Both the position numbers and the translations under genes were made by a program. 32,000 bases of DNA from Microcystis aeruginosa NIES-843 (GTDB lineage: Bacteria > Cyanobacteriota > Cyanobacteriia > Cyanobacteriales > Microcystaceae), in assembly GCF_000010625.1 (NCBI RefSeq), contig NC_010296.1, positions 1,590,001 through 1,622,000 on the forward strand, given 5' to 3'. How positions within the stretch are numbered: position 1 is the first letter of the stretch; the number at the start of each line of letters is the position of its first letter. This document shows, in pieces, positions 2,930 to 31,849 of this stretch. The notes below the pieces were generated by a model, which was not told the DNA's origin, did not search any database, and worked only from the letters and a program-made list of their open reading frames with translations.

Positions 2930-4192
2930 TTATCGACCTAAAAGATTGGCAATATCAGCACATCCCCCCGGAATGGTTGCGCGGGACTTTTCCCCACACC
3001 AACGACAACAATAGTGACGTTGTTCCTCGCTCATATTTTTCACCCCGGTAAAATTGACATTTTCTACCACTGCTCCCGTGTGTTCTCCAGTGTCATAATT
3101 GGGGGGAACGCTGCGACTGCGGGGGGTAGCATTTTCTAGGGAACCATAAAATAAACGCATCCCTTTCATATCTGCCCCTCTTAAATTAGCTTCGTAGAGA
3201 ATTGTCCGCGATACATTTGCTTTCACCAAATCGCTATAACTTAAATCGGCCCGCACCATATTCGCTTCGCTTAAATCCGTCCAGCGCAAATCCTGCCCAG
3301 AAATGTCGGACCCCGCTAACATTACCCCCAATTGTACTACTCTTGTACCGAACTCTCGATCCTCCGCATAACCCCCTTCCCCGTCTAGAATCGGTCTGCC
3401 TAGATAACGATCGCGTTTAATCGGTGATAATAGCCGCGATTGACTCAAAAAACGCAGTATTTTCGCTTTTCCAGAGGCATCGACACTGCTGAGGATGGAA
3501 GCGGTGCGACCTTCTGCGATCGCTCTTTCCTGGGGCCAATCTTCTAAAAATCCCTCCTCATCCAAGGCTAGATCGGAAATCCCTTGAAAATAGGAATCGA
3601 TCGTCTGTTGTTGGGTAATGCGATTTTGTTGTATGGTTAAATCCTTAGAAATAACGTACTGTTCCCAGGCCACATAGACAGCTAACACGGCGATCATAAT
3701 CTGTCCCAAAGCCCCCACCCACTCGGCCCAGGAACCAAACTCATCGTATTTAAAACTCTCTAACCATCGCAATATGCGCTCGTAAACTCCTAAATATTTC
3801 CCTAATGCTGCCAGAGCAGCTATAAAAACTATAAAGGCAAAAACCGTCTGACGTTCAGAGGGGGTGAGATAATGGGCGATCCACTGGCGAATAGAGGGCA
3901 AAATCACCTGTAAAGATATTAATATCGCTACTATCGCCCCAGAAAAGCCTAACCAGTCCCAGCTAAAGACCAGGCCGATGGTCATCACCATCAGGGGGGC
4001 CAGTAGTAACCCCGCGTTACCCGGTCGAAGATCTTTTAATAGTAGGATGCGCTGACGCACGGGATTACGCGAAGATAAAGAGGAGACGTATTCAGAAGCA
4101 TCGGGGGGCGATAAACTGGTTTTACCGTTATTTTCGGGGTTATCGTCCCTATTTTCCGCGGCGAGTTTTTCTGGGTCTTTGCGATCGCTCAT
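2930..4192 (-). CDS. Membrane-anchored pentapeptide-repeat protein
   Basis: The C-terminal half carries A(D/N)LXX-type repeats (RWTDLSEANMVRADLSYSDLVKANVSRTILYEANLRGADMKG), and several TM helices lie in the middle. I prefer the ATG at 4192 (MSDRKDPEK) because the longer ORF extension runs into the IS left end. Confidence 0.8.
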   Translation of the reverse strand: MSDRKDPEKLAAENRDDNPENNGKTSLSPPDASEYVSSLSSRNPVRQRILLLKDLRPGNAGLLLAPLMVMTIGLVFSWDWLGFSGAIVAILISLQVILPSIRQWIAHYLTPSERQTVFAFIVFIAALAALGKYLGVYERILRWLESFKYDEFGSWAEWVGALGQIMIAVLAVYVAWEQYVISKDLTIQQNRITQQQTIDSYFQGISDLALDEEGFLEDWPQERAIAEGRTASILSSVDASGKAKILRFLSQSRLLSPIKRDRYLGRPILDGEGGYAEDREFGTRVVQLGVMLAGSDISGQDLRWTDLSEANMVRADLSYSDLVKANVSRTILYEANLRGADMKGMRLFYGSLENATPRSRSVPPNYDTGEHTGAVVENVNFTGVKNMSEEQRHYCCRWCGEKSRATIPGGCADIANLLGR

Positions 4193-4282
4193 CGAAAATT
4201 TGGGTCTGAAACCCCGTCGTTCTACGACGGCTTTACTGTTAAATATTAGCACATTTACGAAATATATGCTAAAACGTGAGGT

Positions 4283-5470
4283 ATGGAAAAAGCCTATTCG
4301 TTTCGATTTTACCCAACACCCGAACAAGAGTCGCTATTGCGGCGCACTTTGGGCTGTGTAAGATTAGTTTACAACAAAGCTCTCCACGAACGAACACAAG
4401 CTTGGTACGAAAAGCAAGAAAGAGTAGGATATGCTGAAACTTCTTCAATGCTAACCGAGTGGAAAAAACAAGAAGAATTAGACTTTCTCAACGAGGTAAG
4501 CTGTGTACCTTTACAACAAGGGTTAAGACATTTACAAACAGCTTTCACTAATTTCTTTGCTGGTCGTACTAAGTATCCTAACTTTAAGAAAAAACATCAG
4601 GGAGGAAGTGCCGAATTTACCAAGTCTGCTTTTAAATTTAAAGACAAACAAATCTATTTAGCCAAATGCACAGAACCTTTACCTATTCGATGGTCAAGAC
4701 AAATTCCAGAAAGCTGTGAACCAAGCACAGTAACAGTCAGATTACATCCTTCTGGACGTTGGCATATTTCAATTAGATTTGATGACCCAACAATTAAGCC
4801 ATTACCCCCAACCGATAAAGCCATCGGAATTGACTTAGGAATTAGTAGCCTAGTAATTACCAGCGACGGCGATAAAGTATCTAATCCTAAGCATTTTAAG
4901 AAACATTATCAGAGGTTGCGAAAGGCCCAAAAAAATCTTTCTAGAAAACAGAAAGACTCAAAGAATCGAGAAAAGGCAAAAATCAAAGTAGCCAAAATTC
5001 ACGCTCAAATCACCGATAGCAGAAAAGACCATTTACATAAGCTAACCACTCAATTAGTTCGTGAAAACAAAACGATTGTGGTTGAGAATTTAGCCGTTAA
5101 GAATATGGTCAAAAACCCGAAATTATCTCAGGCAATATCTGATGTAAGCTGGGGAGAAATAACCCGACAATTAGCCTATAAATGCCGTTGGTATGGGAGA
5201 AACTACATCGAAATAGATAGATGGTTTCCTAGCTCTAAAAGGTGTAGTAATTGCGGGTATATTGCTGAGAAAATGCCGTTAAATGTTCGAGAATGGGACT
5301 GTCCAGACTGTGGGACACACCATGACCGAGATATTAACGCCAGTAAAAATATTTTGGCCGCAGGGCTTGCGGTGTCAGTCTGTAGAGCGACTATAAGACC
5401 AGAACAGAGTAAATCTGTTAAGGCAGGTGCGAAAAATCCTTCGGGACAGAAGCAGAAACCTAAATCGTGA
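4283..5470 (+). CDS. tnpB: TnpB (OrfB_IS605) RNA-guided endonuclease, apparently intact
   Basis: 395 aa. The RuvC triad is visible (IGIDLG, VVENL, HDRDINAS), as is the zinc finger CSNCG...CPDCG. The N-terminus has the typical YRFYPTPEQ motif. Confidence 0.95.
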   Translation: MEKAYSFRFYPTPEQESLLRRTLGCVRLVYNKALHERTQAWYEKQERVGYAETSSMLTEWKKQEELDFLNEVSCVPLQQGLRHLQTAFTNFFAGRTKYPNFKKKHQGGSAEFTKSAFKFKDKQIYLAKCTEPLPIRWSRQIPESCEPSTVTVRLHPSGRWHISIRFDDPTIKPLPPTDKAIGIDLGISSLVITSDGDKVSNPKHFKKHYQRLRKAQKNLSRKQKDSKNREKAKIKVAKIHAQITDSRKDHLHKLTTQLVRENKTIVVENLAVKNMVKNPKLSQAISDVSWGEITRQLAYKCRWYGRNYIEIDRWFPSSKRCSNCGYIAEKMPLNVREWDCPDCGTHHDRDINASKNILAAGLAVSVCRATIRPEQSKSVKAGAKNPSGQKQKPKS

Positions 5471-9255: not shown

Positions 9256-9476
9256 TTAAATAGGGTTTGCTGAAAAAGCTTTTCGGTGGTGGCAGGGTGT
9301 GGGGTGTGGGGTGTGGGGTTTTATCGATTTTCAGGTGGTCAAGTAGCTAATTTTCAGGGAAAAAGTCCAGGAATTTTCCCCCCGATCCCCGCAATGGCTG
9401 GCACTTTTTGAGGGGAAAAAAGTCCAAAAGTCTTATCCAACAAGGTTTTTAGATTTATTCAGCAGACCCTAAATAC
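9256..9476 (+). mobile_element. MITE copy 1 (about 220 bp), with termini TAAATAGGGTTTGCTGAA / TTCAGCAGACCCTAAATA
   Basis: Inverted termini are visible. The body recurs reverse-complemented at 22510-23528. The same terminus heads the IS5/IS1182-like fragment at 25141. It contains three GGGTGTG units. Confidence 0.7.
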
Positions 9477-9746: not shown

Positions 9747-10907
9747 TCAGACTAGATTTTCATAGACGGTTAGCATCTCTTCAGCGATCGCTGACCAACT
9801 GTATTGATTTAAGACTAAATCCCTGGCATTTTTCCCTCGTTGTTGGCGAATTTCAGGATTAGTGATAGCCGTTGCCAAAGTATTAGTTAAATCCTCAAGC
9901 TGACAAGCTGTCACCCATCCCGCAGCCGCTGCTGCTACCGCAGGATATAGATCCACCCGGTCGGAGATAACCACGGGAATTCCGGCAGCCATAGCTTCTG
10001 CCACTGCGATGCCAAAATTTTCATAGTAGGAAGGTAAAACAAATAAATCGGCCCTAGCGAGGAGGTTATTTTTTACTTCTCCGGTCACAAATCCGGTAAT
10101 TGTTGTATTTTTGCCCAAGATTGACCGCTCGATCTGATTTTTAATGCGATTTTCGTACTCCCGATCCTGGGGATTGCCTCCTGCTAAGACAAAATGAAAA
10201 TCTAGGCCCTTTGCTAACAGACTTTCTAAACTGGGCAGCAATAAATCTAGACCTTTTTTCGGGTCAAGACGGGACATATAGAGGATGATCGGTTTATTTT
10301 GGGGAAGATCAAAACCGTTTACCGGTAGAGCTTGTGGGTCAAAAAAATCTACCCCTAGGGGGATGACAATATCCTTAGTTTTTATATTAAATCTTTCGGC
10401 GATTTGACACTCCTGCTGACTGGTAAAATGAACTGCCGCCGCCGCCGCTAAATTGGGTTTTTCCAGAAAATTGGCATATATTTGTTTAAGTTGCCGTTTT
10501 TTTTGCAAATCTGCCGGATCGAGGGTGCCTAGGGGACGGAGAATATAGGGCAGTTGACGGTAACGAGCGATCGAAGCCGATATACTGCTCACTGGGGAGA
10601 ATAAGGCATGAATATGGGCGATATCGTAATCTTTTGCCCTATTAGCCAACCAAGTAAACAGATCAAGGGAAAATTTATAGCGGCGAAAGGGAGAACAGCG
10701 AAAATAATAGATTTGATAGCCATTTTGACTAACAGGGACCCCTAAAGGCACATCTAGGGGTGCTTGTCCCGTGTCACCATTGGAATCGGTGGTAATAATA
10801 GTCACCTCTTGGCCTAGTTGGGCCAAGGCCGCTGACAAACCGAGTACCATTTGACTGGGGCCACCATAAACAAGGGAAATCGAAGGAACAATCTGAAGAA
10901 TTTTCAT
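9747..10907 (-). CDS. Glycosyltransferase family 4 (GT-B fold)
   Basis: MKILQIVPSISLVYGGPS N-terminus and the C-terminal EX7E-type region (PSYYENFGIAVAEAMAAGIPVV). Confidence 0.9.
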   Translation of the reverse strand: MKILQIVPSISLVYGGPSQMVLGLSAALAQLGQEVTIITTDSNGDTGQAPLDVPLGVPVSQNGYQIYYFRCSPFRRYKFSLDLFTWLANRAKDYDIAHIHALFSPVSSISASIARYRQLPYILRPLGTLDPADLQKKRQLKQIYANFLEKPNLAAAAAVHFTSQQECQIAERFNIKTKDIVIPLGVDFFDPQALPVNGFDLPQNKPIILYMSRLDPKKGLDLLLPSLESLLAKGLDFHFVLAGGNPQDREYENRIKNQIERSILGKNTTITGFVTGEVKNNLLARADLFVLPSYYENFGIAVAEAMAAGIPVVISDRVDLYPAVAAAAAGWVTACQLEDLTNTLATAITNPEIRQQRGKNARDLVLNQYSWSAIAEEMLTVYENLV

Positions 10908-11079
10908 CGAAAAATTGGGTCAGAAACCCCGTCGTTCTAGGTTGGCTTTACTGTTAAATACTAGCGCATTTGCACGATATATGCTAGAAAGTGCCACTTA
11001 GAGCGACTCTAAGACCAGAACAGAGTAAATCTGTTAAGGCAGCTGGGAAACCGCTCAAGAACCCCGAAGAGGATATCAA
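10904..11079 (+). mobile_element. Miniature deletion derivative of the tnpB element (left end fused to right-end/omega-RNA region)
   Basis: 10904-10990 aligns with 4189-4275 (TCATCGAAAA.TTGGGTC.GAAACCCCGTCGTTCTA...). 10999-11044 aligns with 5383-5428. It ends GAGGATATCAA, against GAGGATGTCAA in the full copy. Confidence 0.65.
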
Positions 11080-11158
11080 ATTCAGCTAGTTCGGAACAGG
11101 GAACGGTTGAAAACGAATATCAAATTTAGATGCACAATAGCTTATCCCTCTGATTTAC

Positions 11159-11366
11159 CAGTTATCAGTAAACAGTAAGCAGTTATCAGTGATGAGACGG
11201 GGAGTGGGTAGCATTTTCTGCTCAGTAAATGATAATCGGTCAAGGGTAAAAAGACAGCAAGAAACCGCCATTTAATAAGTAGGTCAGCCCCCCCCTTATT
11301 AAGGGGGGCAGGGGGGGATCACTTAATACTCAAATCTGATAACTGCTCACTGATAACTGCTCACTG
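11159..11366. repeat. Palindromic repeat unit: CAGTTATCAG-type arms around a C8-TTATTAA-G6 hairpin
   Basis: Left arm CAGTTATCAGTAAACAGTAAGCAGTTATCAG and right arm CTGATAACTGCTCACTGATAACTGCTCACTG are inverted. The central hairpin is at 11288-11308. The unit lies directly 3' of trpB. Confidence 0.5.
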
Positions 11367-15334: not shown

Positions 15335-15606
15335 AGAAAGGCCTAGAAAATCGGTTTTTTTGAGCGAAAATAGCTGTAGAATGTAGCGACCTGATGTTTA
15401 AAAAAACTGAAAACTTGGCCGTCTTTCACGGCCTTGGGGTCACAATACCATGTTTTATTTTCCTAGCAAAGCTAAGGTTAACAATTCGCAACTTCTCTAT
15501 ACACAGCCCTAAGTAGGGTTTGCTGAAAAAGCTTTTCCTGGGTGTGGGGTGTCGGGTTTTAAGGGTGTTAGGGATATGCTGACAATAAATCCGGTTAAGT
15601 ACCTAA

Positions 15607-15689
15607 GCAAAATTAATTACACATATCTAACCACCTCTTGCCTCTTGCCTCTTGCCTCTTGCCTATCTTCACTAGGAAATTAATTTTGC
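15607..15689. repeat. Small palindromic element with internal heptamer array (CTCTTGC x4)
   Basis: Termini GCAAAATTAATT / AATTAATTTTGC. A homologous inverted copy lies at 31776-31849 and a solo end at about 2792-2812. Confidence 0.6.
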
Positions 15690-15868
15690 ACGACTACTTA
15701 TTAAAGACTGATTATTTATTCCCCCTTTTGCCTGTCCTGATCTGTAGCCTATACTCAACGGATTTAGTATAACCAACCATAAAATCGGCGATCGCCCTTG
15801 AAACCACAAGAAAATGGCGATCTCAGTTGATGTTCTTGCTTGACATATTACGCAAAACGGAATAGCAT

Positions 15869-18268: not shown

Positions 18269-18697
18269 CTAATTCCAGTTTTGGAAGTTGCCGCCGTTGC
18301 AACCCAGGGTGTAGACCTTGCCCTCAGTGTTGCTATCCAGACACAAGCCAGTGGACACATTAACTAAGCTCTGACCAGATCTCTTCCAGTTTTGGAAGTT
18401 GCCGCCGTTGCAACCCAGGGTGTAGACCTTGCCCTCAGTGTTGCTATCCAGACACAAGCCAGTCGAGCCGTTCTTATATGCTGCATTCACTGATGTCGAA
18501 TCAGGTAAGTTTACTGATGGATGCATTGCTACAACCAAAAAAATTACGCTTAGTACGAACGCCATAAAGCGTAAGAGTGGATTGTAAACAGTTGACACTA
18601 CCTCAGCCCCAAAAACACTGAAGTTACCTCCAAGAATGGCAATCAACAAAAGAATTGCGCCAAAGACGAACGCTCCGATTTTCAAGTTCTCTGGCAT
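18269..18697 (-). CDS. Membrane-anchored protein with two ricin-type (QxW) beta-trefoil lectin repeats
   Basis: Two N-terminal hydrophobic helices, then GLCLDSNTEGKVYTLGCNGGNFQNW twice. Confidence 0.7.
   Translation of the reverse strand: MPENLKIGAFVFGAILLLIAILGGNFSVFGAEVVSTVYNPLLRFMAFVLSVIFLVVAMHPSVNLPDSTSVNAAYKNGSTGLCLDSNTEGKVYTLGCNGGNFQNWKRSGQSLVNVSTGLCLDSNTEGKVYTLGCNGGNFQNWN
18273..18463. repeat. Tandem duplication inside the lectin gene (111-bp period, 78-80 bp identical)
   Basis: 18275-18352 and 18386-18463 are identical base for base. Confidence 0.9.
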
Positions 18698-19990: not shown

Positions 19991-21009
19991 CTAGGACTGA
20001 GTTATACATTGTTTTTCTTTGTCAGTTAAATCAATATATTCAGTTTTTATTCGTTTATTCTTGATTAGTATTCTAAAATACGGACATTTTCCATTTACTG
20101 ATAAATCTTTATCATCATTCCCTTTCCTGAATTTAATTATTTCAAATTGGTCGGGATTGAATTTATGTAAAAATGTTATTGGTACACCCATAACCCCCTT
20201 GAAGTCTAAGGGAATGTCTTGGGTTTTATTGACATTAATTCCATCATAATTGTCATATTTTGGATATTCAGCTTCATTGCCAAAATATCTTTTTGTGAGA
20301 GCCATATCTTCCTGTCGTTTTGATGTGTCTAAGTTGGTTAACCATAAACAATTATTTGGAGAGAATTGTCAATACGAGCCTCTGTTCCATAAAGTTCATA
20401 TTGTTCGGGAACAATAAAACCAGAAATACCTCTACCAAGATTTATTCCTAACCACGCTTTGTTTTCTTTAATTAGTTTGAAAATTTCTTGATAGGTTATT
20501 GCATTAATATTGCCAATTATCAAAAACTTTTTGTCGTATTTAACTAATTGAGCTACATATTCTCTGAATAATGAAAATGGGGGATTAGTCACAACAATAT
20601 CGGACTTTTTTAATAGTTCAATACTTTCAGGACTACGAAAATCCCCATCCCCATTAAAGTAAACAATGTCAGTTGAACTATGTTTATTTTTTTCTCTCTC
20701 TGTACCTGTATATTCAAAGAAAAAACCCTTTTCATCTTCTTCTGCATTAAATAAATCTCTCACTTGTTCTCGATAACAAGATGTTATTATTTTTTTTAGA
20801 CCTAACTTTTTAAAGTTTGAGGCAAAATACTTAAAAAAGTTACTAATTCGGGGGTCATCGCAATTGCAATAAACTACTTTATTTTCAAAATGACTTTTAT
20901 AGTGTTGCAACTCACTTTCTATATCTGAAAGTTGTGTATAAAACTCGTCACTTTTTAATTTTTTAGCATTTTGCAATAATTTATTTGTCGCATTTCTTGC
21001 CATGTTCAA
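19991..21009 (-). pseudogene. EcoRI-methylase-family N6-adenine DNA methyltransferase, frameshifted
   Basis: ORF 20338-21009 carries DEFYTQ and VVTNPPFSL. ORF 19991-20305 carries YPKYDNYDGINV...GVMGVPITFL. A third frame between them reads NNCLWLTNLDTSKRQED and bridges into the second ORF, which indicates a 1-nt indel near 20350-20385. Confidence 0.85.
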
Positions 21010-21122
21010 CCTTTTTTGATTTAATAAATCTTTTGTTTTTAGTTATTTACTTTTGGTTATCTGATTAAATATTTCACTGCCTAATAATTGAAGAGAGGTT
21101 TTAGAAATTTTAAGCATAATAT

Positions 21123-22479
21123 TGGGACTTAAACAAATTTCAAGCCCAAATGTAGCCCAAAGCCGCTTTGTGAGCGGAAAAGACATCAATATTCTGCGTT
21201 AGCCAAGTGAAAAAACGAAAAGACATCGCTGTACGAAAAGCCTCCAAAGCATCAGTAAATGTCTCCAAAGGTTTATTCGCCCATCGCCTTTGTAGTCCCC
21301 CGGTTAAGTGATGCCAGAGAATAAAAGTGTAGGCACAAAACACTAGGATAAAATGGCGAAGAAGGCTTTCTTTCTCGCGAACCCGATATTCTCTTAGCCC
21401 TAACCATCCTTTCGCCTCTCGATAGAAAACTTCTACCCAATTTCTTTGGGAGTAAGTTTCTACTACCCATTGCGGGGTTACTTTTTCCGCCTGGACATTC
21501 GTGATAAAATAATCGATGTCCGTCGCTTCTTCCCAAGAACTTGCGTTCATGACGATGGCAAAAGTTCTCTCTTCTTCTCAAGAAGCGATGCGAGCGTAAA
21601 CAATAAACACGTATAGGGTTTTCGGTTTTTCAACTGAGAGAATTACTGGGTTAAAACTCTCTAGATTCAAGCTTTTTGCTAATTTCTCCAGACTGATTTC
21701 TTCCTCGATTCCTGATTCCGTTTTTCGGATAATTTTTCGATTTTTAGCCACTCCTCCTAAATACTTTAGTTTTCTCTTTTCTAACTCTTTCAGAAACGGC
21801 GTGTTGTTTTCATACCCCGCATCTATCAAGACAATTTTCGGTCGGTATTTTCGCTTTAAACTTCGGTCGATTAATTCGAGTCCGAGTTCGGGTTTCTTTT
21901 TCAACTCTTCGTCTTCTTTTCCCGATAGTAGAGAAGATGCCGGTTGATAGAGCTCGATGTCTAAGGGTAAGCTTTTTTTCCCGTCGTAGAGATGGGTGGT
22001 TACTACCACTACTCCGTTGTCTGTCTTGCCGATCTCACCGAGGTATTGTCTTCCGACTCCCTCGGTAAAATTGCCACTTTTTCGATGTCCCGAATCATCC
22101 AGAATCATCGTGAAGCCCACGCCGATCCTAGTCGGCGAGCATTTGTTCATCACTTCCAGACGACGTTGGTTAATTGGCGTCGCCGACCAAGGAGCCTCGG
22201 TTAAAAAGTGATGTAATCGGTGATAAACCACCCCCACCGAGTTATCCGCCATCTGGGTTAGGTTTTTTCGCTCGCTTTCTCCTAATAATCCGCCTAAATA
22301 TTGTCGGAAGCCATCTTTTTGCGACTGGTTTTTGAAACAGTCATCGAATCTAGCGCACCATCTCTCGAAGCAGGGCGGCATAGCGGATGGGGTCGTTTCT
22401 CCCATGGGCGTATTTTGACGTGAAAGCCTACTATGACTTGATTATAGCTAAAAAAGTTCGGTTCTGTGTTTAAGTCCCA
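21123..22479 (-). mobile_element. IS701-like (IS4 superfamily) insertion sequence
   Basis: 13-bp terminal inverted repeat TGGGACTTAAACA at 21123-21135 and, as complement, at 22467-22479. It encloses a DDE transposase gene. Confidence 0.8.
21140..22405 (-). pseudogene. IS701-family DDE transposase with a single in-frame TGA (21578-21580)
   Basis: ORFs 21578-22405 and 21140-21550 are in the same frame: ...VYARIAS*EEERTFAIVMNASSWEE... Candidate catalytic motifs DDSGHRK and LIDAGY lie upstream of the stop, and YREAKGWLG lies downstream. Confidence 0.8.
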
Positions 22480-22509
22480 CTATCCCACTTCCATCGGTCT
22501 AACACCCCC

Positions 22510-23528
22510 TAAATAGGGTCTGCTGAATAAATCTAAAAACCTTGTTGGATAAGACTTTTGGACTTTTTTCCCCTCAAAAAGTGCCAGCCATTGCGGGGAT
22601 CGGGGGGAAAATTCCGGGACTTTTTCCCAGAAAATTAGGTACTTGACCACCTGAAAATCGATAAAACCCCACACCCCACACCCCACACCCGTTACAGTAG
22701 AGCAGGAAGTCGCCTTCCCACCCCCTGCTTCAAAACCGGACTTACGACTTTCGCCGTATCCGGCTCCTGAGTAACTAGGCTACTGTCATTAGTAGAATAA
22801 TAATGGGAATTATTATTTCCTTGTCTATTCAACCCTCTTGGCTGTATCCCCACCAGACAAGATTGTTGGTTTTAGGGCGTATATGACCGTTGATTGTTGC
22901 TTAGACTTCCTAGTTACCCGTCCTTTGTCAGCATATCTTTGATATTACTCAAAGCCTTGGCTTTTAAGGACATCCTCTCCCTCTATTGACTTGCGGATGG
23001 TTTCCTACTGCCCCGAACGGGCAGAGTCAATCAGGGTTACTTCGTTCCCTATAACCATTGGTTGAACCCTTAGGATGATACTGTCCACAACAGAGTAACG
23101 GGAATGCCTTACTGATAGTGGTATGAGCTATCAGCCCCAACTCTGTTAACTTTTGTTTCGAGCCTGTCAGCCTTTTGGCTCGTGGGTGTTGACGATGGTT
23201 AATTCGTATCTTCGCCCCAGGGCTATCCATAGGTTCTGGCTCAACGGGTTTCTGATTTAGGCTATCAGATACCGCTTTTTTTTCCTCGCTCACTACCTCA
23301 GATGTACCAAGTCTAAAGCAGCAGGAAATGCCGTCACTCTAGGCATCTAGAGGACAGGACTAAGGTTATTACTAACCCGCACCTGTAGGGTTATAAAGTT
23401 ATCAAGGTACTACATTTACCAAGCGGCTAATCCTCTAAACGTCTTACTGTCTAGTTTCTAGCCAACGAATTGCACCACACCCCACACCCTGCCACCACCG
23501 AAAAGCTTTTTGCCGCAAACCCTAAATA
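22510..23528 (-). mobile_element. MITE copy 2 (inverted relative to copy 1), carrying a 785-bp insertion
   Basis: 22510-22690 plus 23476-23528 is the reverse complement of 9256-9476. The interruption falls inside the GGGTGTG repeat. Confidence 0.7.
22691..23475 (-). ncRNA. ORF-less group II intron (ribozyme/retroelement)
   Basis: The minus strand starts GTGCAATTCG. Domain V reads GAGCCGGATACGGCGAAAGTCGTAAGTCCGGTT. Domain VI has a GCGA loop and a bulged A 8 nt from the end, ...CTACTGTAAC. There is no RT ORF. Confidence 0.8.
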
Positions 23529-23897
23529 AAACCCAATAGCGCACCGTGCGGTTTAATCACCGCAATTTGAGGATAATTACCGCACAGAGGGGTCTAGCAT
23601 TCCACTCAAGACGTGAAGACGACAATACCAAGCAATTGAGGCGGCATAACTCCCCATCTCCCCATCTCCCCATCTCCCCATCTCCGCCCGCAATGCGCAG
23701 CAAGTGGTCTCGCCGAAAAATTTTAGATTTTCTTAAGATCGACCTGAAAAACATTGGCTATTTTTTCCAATATAGTGTAAGTTAAGAAAAGTAAAGATTT
23801 CTCACAATTCTTCCACACATCTGCTCGCCTGCTCGGATGGATGGAGGAGAGAGGGCGGAATCTTAGCAATAATATACATTTTTCGGAGAAAACCCCC

Positions 23898-25411: not shown

Positions 25412-26638
25412 ACGGGAGCGTCTCATTTATGCAAGCGAGTAATTATACTTGTCCCTAAAACTGGTTTCTAGCAAGGCTTTCAAAATAGCTTGACATAAAA
25501 CCTGATTTAGGGGTTACAAAGGTGAGATGCTCCCTAAACTACACCAAAATCATCGATATTTAGTCAAAGATTTACCAATCTCAGGACAACCAGTGTACCT
25601 ACAAGTTAATCGTCGTCAATTTAAGTGCGGTAATTGTCAGAGACCCTTTAGCGAAGAGTTAGATTTTGTCGCCAAGAAACGAACCTATACGAAAAGACTA
25701 GCCGAAAATATACTCGAACAATTAAAAGAAGGAGATATTTTAAATGTTAGCCGAAGAAATAACGTAACGGAAGAAGAGATTCAAAGAATGGTAGAGGACA
25801 TCGCCGAAGAAATTACAGAGCCAGATTTATCGAAATTAAAAAGACTAGGAATTGATGAAATCGCTCTAGTCAAAGGACAAAAAAATTACTGTGCGGTTTT
25901 AGTAAATTTAGATACGGGAAAACTAATAGCTATTCTAGAGAAGCGAACACAAGAGGAGTTGAGAGAAACGCTTACGGGCTGGGGAAAAGAGGTGTTAGAG
26001 CAAATTGAAGAAGTCAGCATAGATCTTTGGTTGCCCTATAAAAATTTGATGAAAGAATTGATGCCATCGGCCGAGGTAGTCGCCGATAGATTCCATGTCA
26101 TGAAACAAATTAATCAAGAGTTAGACGAACAGAGAAGAGCGGAAAAAAGAGCCGTAGAAGCGCAGAAAAATAAAAAACAGAAAGCGGAAAAAGAAGCAAA
26201 GCTAGAAGTTTTAAAGCGAAGTAAATATAGCCTGTTAAAAAATGAAGAAGATTTAACGGAACCCCAAAAAATTAAACTAGAAGCTATCAAAGAAAATTTG
26301 ACAAATTTGAAAAAGATGCAGGAATTAAAGGAAGAATTTAGAAAGATTTATGAAACCTCAAAGAATCCGACAGAGGGAATGCTATCCATCTCGGAATGGT
26401 TGGCAAAATCCTCCAGTGTTTTTACCAAGAGTTGTCAAACAATCCGAAACTGGTTTGGAGAAATAATTAGTTATTTCGAGCGAAGGACAACGAATGGGGT
26501 GGTCGAGGGAATCAACAATAAACTTAAACTAATAAAACGGAGAGGCTATGGCTTTAGAAACTTTCGGAATTTTTGGGTTAGAAGTATGTTATCTTGGCAT
26601 CTTGTATGTTGATTTAGCATAAAGGGTAACGAAGAGCC
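25412..26638 (+). mobile_element. ISL3-family element, right IR intact, left end degenerate
   Basis: The right terminus ...GGGTAACGAAGAGCC ends at 26638. The left side has only a weak match (GGGAGCGTCTCATTTATGC at 25414). Confidence 0.6.
25527..26612 (+). CDS. ISL3-family transposase (N-terminal zinc-finger region apparently missing or decayed)
   Basis: LHQNHRYLVKDLPISGQPVYLQVNRRQFKCGNCQRPF, GIDEIAL, SIDLW and NGVVEGINNKLKLIKRRGYGFRN are ISL3 hallmarks. The usual upstream CPxCG segment is absent, and frames upstream contain stops. Confidence 0.85.
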   Translation: MLPKLHQNHRYLVKDLPISGQPVYLQVNRRQFKCGNCQRPFSEELDFVAKKRTYTKRLAENILEQLKEGDILNVSRRNNVTEEEIQRMVEDIAEEITEPDLSKLKRLGIDEIALVKGQKNYCAVLVNLDTGKLIAILEKRTQEELRETLTGWGKEVLEQIEEVSIDLWLPYKNLMKELMPSAEVVADRFHVMKQINQELDEQRRAEKRAVEAQKNKKQKAEKEAKLEVLKRSKYSLLKNEEDLTEPQKIKLEAIKENLTNLKKMQELKEEFRKIYETSKNPTEGMLSISEWLAKSSSVFTKSCQTIRNWFGEIISYFERRTTNGVVEGINNKLKLIKRRGYGFRNFRNFWVRSMLSWHLVC

Positions 26639-31744: not shown

Positions 31745-31775
31745 TGTTGTAACTCCAGTAACTTATAAGTAGTCT

Positions 31776-31849
31776 TGCAAAATTAATTTCTTGGTTAGGA
31801 TAGGCAATAGGCAATAGGCAAGAAGTAGTTAAATCTGTGTGATTAATTG
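31776..31849. repeat. Second copy (inverted) of the small palindromic heptamer-array element
   Basis: GCAAAATTAATTTC...(GGCAATA)x3...GATTAATTGC. The reverse complement aligns with 15607-15689. Confidence 0.55.

Follow-up and report, generated by a model that had tools for sequence, protein, structure and literature searches.

An ORF-less group II intron family in G-rich heptamer arrays of Microcystis genomes

Introduction

Upstream of psbD in the genome of Microcystis aeruginosa NIES-843, a non-coding MITE is interrupted by an insert of 785 nt. What is this insert, how did it come to lie within a repeat carried by another mobile element, and which protein could have moved it? We consider these questions for a stretch of 32,000 nt of this genome (NC_010296.1, positions 1,590,001 to 1,622,000), referred to here as the window, whose own numbering is used for all positions. 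An initial annotation of the window had read the insert as an ORF-less group II intron that homes into the repeat of the MITE. M. aeruginosa NIES-843 has been reported to encode seven group II reverse transcriptases (RTs) (PMC8934634). The literature covered, from which subscription journals were mostly absent, gives no account of group II introns, whether in Microcystis or in heptamer repeats.

Results

Identity and boundaries of the insert

The insert occupies positions 22691 to 23475 on the minus strand, where it reads GTGCAATTCG from position 23475 onward, and runs over 785 nt from GUGCA to a terminal GUAAC. Both boundaries follow from the end of the match to RF00029, the Rfam model of domains V and VI, and from the ends shared by 13 copies. 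The RF00029 match (22691-22768, minus strand) extends over the full model and scores 55 bits, the gathering score being 40 (window-wide E = 2e-8), and its end coincides exactly with the proposed 3′ boundary of the intron. The match to RF01999 (D1-D4) is partial and under its gathering score (E = 0.005). The 5′ flank ends in GGGTGTGGGGTGTG and the 3′ flank begins with GGGTGTGGGGTGTGGGGTGTGGGG; both rejoin in register. Over D1-D3 and D5-D6 the insert is homologous to full-length cyanobacterial introns encoding RT/maturase/HNH proteins, which were taken for comparison from a plasmid collection. These RT-encoding relatives from cyanobacterial plasmids all begin with GTGCGATTCGTT, and 10 full-length relatives open with GUGCG or GUGUG. 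The closest RNA relatives encode proteins with the domains RVT_N+RVT_1+GIIM+HNH; the insert itself is without an intron-encoded protein (IEP).

The MFE fold of the insert comprises six domains, and for 13 family members RNAalifold predicts 112 pairs over D1-D3, of which 84 show compensatory change. MFE fold and RNAalifold together delimit domain I (23041..23469, intron 7-435), closed by the helix UUCGUU/AACGAA, domain II (22979..23036, intron 440-497) and domain III (22920..22971, intron 505-556), all on the minus strand like the remaining domains. Domain V (22732..22767), placed by RF00029 and the MFE fold, has an AGC triad, an AA bulge and a GAAA loop, and its sequence GAGCCGGATACGGCGAAAGTCGTAAGTCCGGTT corresponds to intron positions 710-742 (22734-22766). 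Domain VI (22694..22728), placed by RF00029, the fold and comparison, has a GGAAG-GCGA-CTTCC core and a bulged branch-point A at intron position 778 (22698) followed by CUGUAAC; its helix recurs, with compensatory changes, in 12 family members. The Microcystis intron family may splice with lariat formation.

By its Rfam match, fold, homology and covariation the 785-nt insert is a group II intron, probably of the cyanobacterial chloroplast-like (CL)/IIB type. The claim of an ORF-less group II intron is thus borne out by a significant RF00029 match, a six-domain fold and homology to RT-encoding introns, and the features on which the initial annotation had built it, i.e., the 5′ end, domains V and VI, the EBS hairpin and the flanks, were all found in place. 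Two outcomes that it had named as fatal did not occur: the covariance models did give a significant match (RF00029), and the related copies, rather than having different boundaries, share exact ends and domain V in 13 cases.

Loss of the ORF from domain IV

Domain IV (22769..22919, minus strand, intron 557-707), delimited by alignment and blastx, is ~150 nt long and contains no RT ORF; the earlier argument that the insert has no room for a reverse transcriptase holds, since only degenerate ORF remnants are left. The domain aligns with the DIVa/ORF-start region of 12 relatives, with ACG in place of ATG and an in-frame stop, and its end matches IEP C-termini (blastx). As remnants of both the start and the end of the ORF are visible, the intron would be a deletion derivative, as in Thermosynechococcus, and it probably lost its ORF from domain IV of a cyanobacterial intron. 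The C-terminal remnant was rejected as strong evidence because the same stretch is also conserved as RNA (the D4 closing stem and D5).

Pairing of the intron with its exons

The 5′ exon target (23476..23490, minus strand) consists of an A at -15, IBS2 (GGGTGT, 23484-23489), two spacer nucleotides and IBS1 (GGTGTG, 23476-23481). An Id3-type hairpin, identified from the fold and the relatives (CTGATAG-CTCATACCA-CTATCAG, intron 342-364, 23112..23134, minus strand), presents the loop CUCAUACCA carrying EBS1. EBS1 (CAUACC, intron 351-356, 23120-23125) pairs with GGUGUG at exon positions -6..-1 with one G-U. EBS2 (ACACCC, intron 287-292, 23184..23189, minus strand), placed by the aligned positions of relatives, pairs with GGGUGU at -14..-9. 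The 3′ exon opens with a heptamer tract, (GGGTGTG)3.6 (22666..22690, minus strand), in which the G at 22690 is IBS3 and two core motifs are still unoccupied, both without the A at -15.

With wobble pairs allowed, D1 contains two 6-mers that can pair with GGTGTG, and for GGGTGT there are eight. An EBS match alone is, therefore, weak evidence, and it is the comparison with relatives that makes the assignment specific. The loop aligned with EBS1 in 10 RT-encoding relatives pairs with their own 5′ exons at 6/6 positions in four, at 5/6 in five and poorly in one. Of the 11 introns scored, among them the Microcystis intron, 10 have their cognate exon in first or second place out of 11. The EBS1 proposed in the initial annotation is confirmed by this positional homology and by the complementarity of the aligned loops to the relatives' own exons. 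Its EBS2 is supported more weakly: in three relatives (L146, L153 and L151) the aligned stretch forms 6/6 pairs with positions -14..-9 or -13..-8 of the intron's own exon, and in others it pairs partially. C393 (23083, minus strand), which lies in D1 at a distance from the loop of EBS1, as in the IIB/CL lineage, is a candidate EBS3 pairing with the +1 G of the 3′ exon. Its alignment column is Watson-Crick complementary to position +1 in 9 of 11 family members, at a modest significance estimated at ~0.05 after correction for the number of columns, and +1 is a G in all 13 Microcystis sites for which both flanks are available. Given the complementarity to EBS1, EBS2 and EBS3, one target is made up of two heptamer units and the G that follows, with the motif A-GGGTGTNGGGTGTN-G.

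Sister copies in Microcystis

Sister copies were retrieved by means of a spurious 88-aa ORF in D1, through exact-sequence look-up followed by a search for homologues. At least 13 further copies with identical ends were found in Microcystis assemblies; they are 98.5-99.9% identical, and most differ by one base from the window copy. All 13 sites with both flanks (the window included) conform to GGGTGT-N-GGGTGT-N|GGG, with variants tolerated at -8 and -1, and 12 of the 13 have the A at -15. Some of these 13 sites stem from short-read metagenome contigs, where a repeat of 785 bp can give rise to chimeric joins, and L127-L130 have one 3′ flank in common, so that the 13 sites represent ~10 independent insertions. 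Many assembly contigs end inside the intron, as expected for a repeat. Gene callers also predict spurious ORFs of 60-95 aa inside the 785-nt introns.

The initial annotation had the intron homing into the repeat of the MITE. The GGGTGTG repeat stands as the target, but the MITE is not required. Copies do lie in members of the MITE family of the window (the window copy, L126, L131 and L142, and partly L124 and L127), but others occupy plain heptamer arrays with MITE sequence on neither side (L123, L125, L128-L130 and both copies of L140). The target is, therefore, the heptamer array preceded by the A at -15, which appears to be preferred, rather than the MITE. M. viridis NIES-102 carries two copies in one heptamer array, 21 nt apart. 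Signs of decay were observed as well, i.e., insertions of an IS and a mini-element in copy A of NIES-102, the end of a TnpB element inside D4 of L132 and an internal deletion in L141. On the assemblies compared, the intron copies are shown to form a young family of many copies in Microcystis, each at one and the same point of a G-rich heptamer array.

The host MITE and the psbD locus

The host MITE copy (22510..23528, minus strand) measures 1019 bp including the intron and has the TIRs TATTTAGGGTTTGCGG... and ...CAGCAGACCCTATTTA; the MITE ends TAAATAGGGTTTGCTGAA and TTCAGCAGACCCTAAATA agree at 15 of 18 positions. The window contains an intron-free paralogue of 219 bp with TIRs (9257..9475, plus strand), whose (GGGTGTG)3.6 tract holds a perfect empty target, A-GGGTGTGGGGTGTG-G; the filled MITE has 5.6 heptamer units, two more than the 3.6 of this empty paralogue. 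Several further copies of this non-coding element (78-100% identity) occur in ~250 kb of Microcystis DNA, and most of the MITE copies observed are intron-free. The MITE recognised in the initial annotation was thus found both here and in other Microcystis contigs, and the 785 bp are no integral part of it.

MITE and intron lie upstream of the neighbouring psbD in the opposite orientation to this gene. Strains without the insertion were found in the comparison that had been proposed earlier: at the orthologous site upstream of psbD, L162, L164 and L170 have neither MITE nor intron. Instead of the MITE, 16 unrelated nucleotides (TTAATAGGACTTAATA) are present, with no clear target-site duplication visible. 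No minus-strand promoter was identified upstream of the intron, and scanning the locus for consensus promoters and terminators was uninformative. Against the window MITE, the MITE halves that adjoin other copies of the intron reach just 78-88% identity, whereas the introns are 98.5-99.9% identical; together with the intron-free MITEs and the empty orthologous locus, this makes the intron younger than the MITE copies.

A private substitution in the window copy

The 5′ terminal pentanucleotide of the window copy (23471..23475, minus strand) is GUGCA, with A at position 5 (23471) where the sister copies have G. Each of the 12 other copies whose 5′ end can be read begins with GUGCG, so that this G5-to-A change is private to the window copy. 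The family conforms to the 5′ consensus GUGYG; the window copy departs from it at the conserved G5, yet it remains a member by descent. G5 of group II introns is part of the network of the 5′ splice site and the active site. The window copy may, therefore, splice poorly, and it has probably been weakened or killed by this later substitution.

Search for a helper reverse transcriptase

Neither the window nor ~250 kb of Microcystis loci contains an RT gene, and tblastn with an IEP gave no match in these loci. The exact 33-mer of D5 retrieved nothing but ORF-less copies from JGI metagenomes and had no match in IMG/VR, where neither the EBS1 hairpin nor the 5′ 27-mer had one. Scans with D5, EBS and 5′-end sequences, together with IEP searches, retrieved no RT-encoding intron with the same D5, D1 or EBS set. 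Whole-IEP searches with Hormoscilla and Acaryochloris queries gave no Microcystis-named protein among the best 120, about a quarter of the proteins being named. Four IEP matches, high in copy number or closest, were rejected as parents at ~66-68% D1 identity. When the distal stem of the D5 pattern was left degenerate, it matched genome contigs of many phyla, with no close relative among at least 120 loci, and the plasmid collection gave nothing but short and weak matches for the intron and none for the MITE. We infer that the RT/maturase serving the ORF-less intron acts in trans.

Discussion

We consider it likely, with a probability of roughly 0.85, that the insert is an ORF-deleted CL/IIB intron that has been mobilised in trans by retrohoming into heptamer arrays; this estimate covers the intron type, the loss of the ORF and the retrohoming jointly. 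The intron would be transcribed by read-through, after which an RT/maturase with an HNH domain, as in the relatives, encoded elsewhere in the cell by a different intron would fold and splice it, the retained DIVa region being the likely binding site of this protein. The lariat RNP could then reverse-splice into further heptamer sites and be copied into DNA. Since an array has several units, a target persists beside an inserted copy and tandem insertions can occur, and non-coding arrays, including those borne by MITEs, would be harmless landing sites. The window copy would have entered a MITE that was already present upstream of psbD and would have acquired G5-to-A later. Because the perfect targets in the window are unoccupied, mobility is at best infrequent.

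Those same empty targets would also suit a family of immobile relics that owe their persistence and spread solely to vertical descent or to recombination among heptamer arrays, with neither active retrohoming nor a helper today. Such a fossil family would explain why no helper RT turned up in the D5 scans, the IEP searches or the Microcystis loci, and why copies are decaying (the window copy by G5-to-A, copy A of NIES-102, L132 and L141). We nevertheless regard it as unlikely, as copies at ~10 loci are 98.5-99.9% identical in surroundings of MITEs at 78-88%, the presence of the intron differs among strains, and the exact common ends at EBS-complementary sites are not expected from recombination. 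Group II RTs have, moreover, been reported in Microcystis genomes.

It is much less probable still that the intron is passive cargo of the MITE, moved together with it by a DNA transposase and without any RNA-based homing. At least four copies do reside in members of the MITE family (the window copy, L126, L131 and L142, with L124 and L127 in part), but several others (L123, L125, L128-L130 and both L140 copies) have no MITE on either side, divergence is far greater among the host MITEs than among the introns, and most observed MITE copies are free of the intron. A DNA insertion element with a 14-bp target duplication (GGGTGTGGGGTGTG) and a coincidental likeness to domain V, which the two additional heptamer units of the filled MITE might suggest, is refuted by the RF00029 match above the gathering score, the full-length homology to RT-encoding group II introns with structural covariation in RNAalifold, the lack of terminal inverted repeats and of a transposase in the insert, 3′ flanks that elsewhere are no copy of the 5′ flank (e.g., GGGAGATTAAAT, GCCCCCCC and GAAGGGG) and a heptamer number that varies freely among arrays.

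Trans-mobilisation by retrohoming could be taken one step further, into an extension that is possible but doubtful. The lineage would have specialised on the heptamer as a quadruplex-prone microsatellite, an array of which would keep offering it fresh in-phase sites, with the A at -15 as a contact of the borrowed RT and with homing altering the number of heptamers. The A at -15 is unexplained by base pairing with the intron, and it may mark contact by a borrowed, non-cognate reverse transcriptase. That retrohoming, or the repair following it, changes the number of units (5.6 in the filled against 3.6 in the empty MITE) is more speculative. If true, intron activity would help to drive repeat instability in Microcystis genomes.

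Comparison with known systems

The Microcystis intron belongs to an established class of selfish elements, of which it is a new case with an unusual target niche, and it represents no new kind of biology; the understanding of how group II introns function is left unchanged by this family. It does provide a natural example of a protein-less group II intron that would multiply by means of an abundant, harmless and self-renewing 7-nt repeat and a protein made elsewhere. The 15-nt target, together with the variation tolerated at -8 and -1 and with A at -15, forms a natural data set that bears on target recognition by a IIB intron with a non-cognate IEP. Knowledge of the family is also of use in annotation, as the 785-nt introns break Microcystis assemblies, and in studies of the plasticity of Microcystis genomes.

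Group II introns in repeated or mobile DNA are known from the IIC introns at terminators and attC sites, from RmInt1 in ISRm2011-2 and from archaeal introns residing in the ORFs of other introns. Like these, the Microcystis intron homes to abundant and dispensable repeats where insertion does little harm. Unlike introns that recognise stem-loops, it would use ordinary EBS1, EBS2 and EBS3 pairing to a linear motif, and its repeat is a microsatellite-like array of 7-nt units that offers several overlapping in-phase targets.

Full-length CL relatives include introns of Acaryochloris marina pREB1 (L151), of an Aphanizomenonaceae TIOX110 plasmid (L143) and of Nostoc PCC 7120 pDelta (L152). The Microcystis intron shares with introns of this type the 5′ end GTGCGATTCGTT, D1 at 45-65% identity with the same helices, the positions of EBS1, EBS2 and EBS3, the D5/D6 architecture and a 3′ ...AAC tail. 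They differ in carrying an ORF of ~1.7 kb in D4, compared to a D4 of ~150 nt in the Microcystis intron, and in targeting protein-coding genes, e.g., those for a Tn3 transposase and a T4SS coupling protein.

The ORF-less IIB1 introns TeI3a-t of Thermosynechococcus elongatus are mobilised in trans by the IEPs of TeI4 "driver" introns (Mohr, Ghanem and Lambowitz 2010, PMC2882425). Like TeI3a-t (PMC2882425), the Microcystis intron appears to be a CL/IIB intron with the domain IV ORF deleted and remnants of its N- and C-terminal parts still visible. Both occur in numerous, almost identical copies that lie for the most part in non-coding or mobile DNA, have good EBS/IBS matches at their sites and favour an A just upstream of IBS2. 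They differ in that no twintrons were observed among the Microcystis copies, although two copies stand in tandem in one array, and in that the Microcystis host is a mesophilic bloom-former for which a driver IEP is postulated. The clearest difference concerns the target: TeI3a-t insert at unique intergenic sites or in the ORFs of other introns, whereas the Microcystis intron appears to use a tandem heptanucleotide, two units of which serve as IBS2 and IBS1.

Intron Identity and Loss of Its Reading Frame

The 785-nt insert (window 23475-22691, minus strand) starts with GTGCAATTCG and ends with CTACTGTAAC, and every string that the initial annotation quoted from it is present where it was placed. 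The Rfam search proposed there yielded a sole match above the gathering score in the whole window, i.e., RF00029 (group II intron domains V/VI) at 22691-22768 on the minus strand, which spans the full model with 55 bits (threshold, 40) and stops exactly at the proposed 3' end of the intron. When the locus was scanned permissively, a partial match to the D1-D4 model RF01999 was added (E=0.005, below its threshold). The minimum-free-energy fold has the expected six domains: D1 (intron 7-435), D2 (440-497), D3 (505-556), D4 (557-707), D5 (709-744, with the AGC triad, an AA bulge and a GAAA loop) and D6 (748-782, with a bulged A at 778). D4 contains no ORF of any size, in line with the earlier claim that there is no reverse transcriptase (RT). 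A consensus fold of 13 sequences comprises 112 pairs, 84 of which have compensatory changes, and such changes also occur in the conserved D6 (a 15-bp helix, the bulged A, 3-4 more pairs and a 2-3-nt tail). Judged from sequence and predicted fold, the insert belongs to the group II ribozymes of the cyanobacterial chloroplast-like/IIB type, is structurally intact and lacks a reverse transcriptase.

The full-length relatives compared, RT-encoding introns from cyanobacterial plasmids plus two from assemblies, all start with GTGCGATTCGTT, as does this element, and their D1-D3 align with it at 45-65% identity. DIVa and the start-codon region of these relatives align to the 5' portion of D4; their ATATGTCTAAAAC corresponds to ATACGCCCTAAAAC in the element, which has lost the start codon and has an in-frame stop beyond it. 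The end of D4 and D5 weakly match the C-termini of intron-encoded proteins (IEPs), a match that was given less weight since the same stretch is conserved as RNA. The same pattern is found in the ORF-less introns of Thermosynechococcus, which were born by ORF deletion and are mobilized in trans by driver IEPs (PMC2882425).

Host MITE and psbD Locus

Together, the two intron flanks make up a small inverted-repeat element. This MITE also occurs uninterrupted (9257-9475, plus strand, 219 bp), with the ends TAAATAGGGTTTGCTGAA and TTCAGCAGACCCTAAATA and (GGGTGTG)3.6 inside. The intron-filled copy (22510-23528) has the intron between 2.1 and 3.6 heptamer units, and the flanks rejoin the tract in register, which bears out the proposed nesting. 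Further MITE copies in ca. 250 kb of related contigs are 78-100% identical; most of them, like that at 9257-9475, are intron-free, and the 785 bp are thus not integral to all MITE copies. To the right of the filled MITE lies psbD, and the orthologous psbD-upstream region in other genomes is 93-95% identical with 16 nt instead of the whole 1019-bp unit of MITE and intron. Consequently, the intron was inserted into the MITE, which is itself a strain-specific insertion, and the intron is younger than its host MITE copies.

At the MITE-free sites (contig L162, 2105-2130, and contigs L164 and L170, compared with window 22505-23540) TTAATAGGACTTAATA occupies the place of the MITE. It resembles MITE-end fragments, a target-site duplication is not clearly visible, and it might be a degenerate MITE remnant or have been left by excision. 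The left side of the MITE (20338-22405) looks degraded: an ORF for an EcoRI-type adenine methyltransferase is truncated (223 aa, profile positions 2-219 of 345), and a DDE transposase is in two pieces, the ORFs 21140-21550 and 21578-22405. An ISL3 transposase (25527-26612) comes after psbD.

Other repeats in the window include a (CTCCCCAT)4.5 array between MITE and psbD (23650-23685), a (CCTCTTG)4.4 array (15634-15664) next to a diverged MITE left end (15510-15557), and heptamer arrays at 2821-2838, 11155-11190 and 31800-31821. Dispersed repeats at 2775-2813, 15592-15710 and 31756-31823 resemble another small family with different heptamers. An 83-nt segment occurs twice (18273-18355 and 18384-18466; 111 nt start-to-start, 99% identity) inside overlapping ORFs, one with a DUF4160 domain. 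An IS200/605-type TnpB element (4189-5470; HTH_OrfB, OrfB_IS605 and Cas12f1-like TNB domains) has an ORF-less miniature derivative with both ends nearly back to back (10904-11050), and its right end is also inserted in domain IV of an intron copy on a related contig (L132, 1-112).

Sister Copies and Target Site

Sister copies were found through a spurious 88-aa ORF inside D1, exact look-up of which led to seven contigs; homologues of this ORF, and a search of metagenomes for the exact D5, led to more. For two of the contigs the source records give Microcystis aeruginosa and M. viridis NIES-102 as the organism. Across the full 785 nt the copies have 98.5-99.9% identity with that in the window, and they share both its ends, so that the differing boundaries envisaged as a counter-argument are not observed; many metagenome contigs end within the intron, as expected for a repeat. 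Public assemblies contain spurious "hypothetical proteins" of 60-95 aa called inside domain I (window 23027-23293, minus strand), i.e., P0001-P0007, among them myaer102_47720 from M. viridis NIES-102. Wherever the 5' end of another copy can be read (12 copies), it starts with GUGCG; only the window copy has A at intron position 5. Since a G5-to-A change in the conserved GUGYG should reduce splicing, the window copy is probably decaying.

The 13 sites with two flanks, including that in the window, have the 5' exon GGGTGT-(G/A)-GGGTGT-(G/A) and a 3' exon starting with GGG; some derive from short-read assemblies and may be non-independent, leaving approximately ten independent insertions. Where only the 3' flank is available, the first base is G and the following ones vary (e.g., GCCCCCC, GAAGGGG, GGGTTTAG). 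Some sites lie inside MITE family members and others in heptamer arrays without MITE sequence nearby. The initial annotation, which had the intron homing into a repeat carried by another mobile element, was therefore right about the heptamer array; the MITE is not always present. Unoccupied targets remain in the window, one of them perfect and located in the empty MITE. A single heptamer array in M. viridis NIES-102 (AP019314.1; contig L140, 5730-8838) holds two intron copies separated by three units (21 nt). The one lying upstream has since been disrupted twice, at intron position 171 by a palindromic mini-element of 87 bp and near 262 by an IS that has a DDE_Tnp_1 transposase.

Position -15 (window 23490; the same position in related contigs L123-L142) is A in 12 of the 13 sites, against an array default of G there, while A occurs just twice at each of the equivalent positions -8 and -1. 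No intron base beside EBS2 could pair with this A, which may be a protein contact, comparable to the selection of A-14/A-15 that has been reported for TeI3c and the TeI4c protein. A (GGGTGTG)n tract that has at least four G-runs matches the canonical G-quadruplex motif (G3 runs, 4-nt loops; window 9295-9319 and 22666-22690), and the homing site is thus on a potentially quadruplex-forming strand.

Exon-Binding Sites

With wobble allowed, D1 offers two 6-mers complementary to GGTGTG and eight complementary to GGGTGT. As several fit, complementarity alone is weak evidence, and the full-length relatives were therefore compared. In ten relatives the loop aligned with the proposed EBS1 (CATACC) pairs with the last six bases of the relative's own 5' exon at 6/6 in four, 5/6 in five and poorly in one. 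Cognate exons ranked first or second of eleven in 10 of the 11 introns scored, the Microcystis intron included, and EBS1 is well supported. The proposed EBS2 (ACACCC) is backed more weakly: the aligned stretch pairs at 6/6 with the own exon (-14..-9 or -13..-8) in three relatives and partially in several. In 9 of 11 introns the base in the D1 column of C393 is the Watson-Crick complement of that at 3'-exon position +1. In IIB introns EBS3 sits away from the EBS1 loop; C393 lies accordingly and is a candidate EBS3.

Proposed Mobility and Comparison With Known Introns

Near-identical copies of the element are numerous and occupy one defined position in heptamer arrays, complementary to its EBS sequences. 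We propose that the intron would be transcribed by read-through, that a maturase/RT from another intron would splice it and form an RNP with it, and that this RNP would then retrohome into further heptamer arrays. Seven group II RTs, six with an HNH domain, have been reported for M. aeruginosa NIES-843 (PMC8934634), so candidate helper proteins exist. The D5 scans and IEP searches made here recovered none of them. A fossil family without current mobility fits poorly with copies that are near-identical at about ten different loci and whose presence varies between strains. Spread as a passenger of the MITE is contradicted by intron copies outside any MITE and by MITEs that are far more diverged than the introns. 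A DNA transposon with a 14-bp duplication is excluded by homology and covariation, and by sites with differing flanks.

The Thermosynechococcus TeI3/TeI4 set is the nearest known system, and full-length introns of Acaryochloris pREB1 and an Aphanizomenonaceae plasmid are among the closest by sequence. A group II intron niche targeting heptamer repeats was not described in the literature searched, coverage of which was incomplete. The mechanism itself is standard, and the difference lies in the target niche: compared with TeI3/TeI4 and the full-length relatives, the element targets tandem repeats of 7 nt. IBS2 and IBS1 come from two units and IBS3 from the next, so that the array offers repeated in-phase targets.
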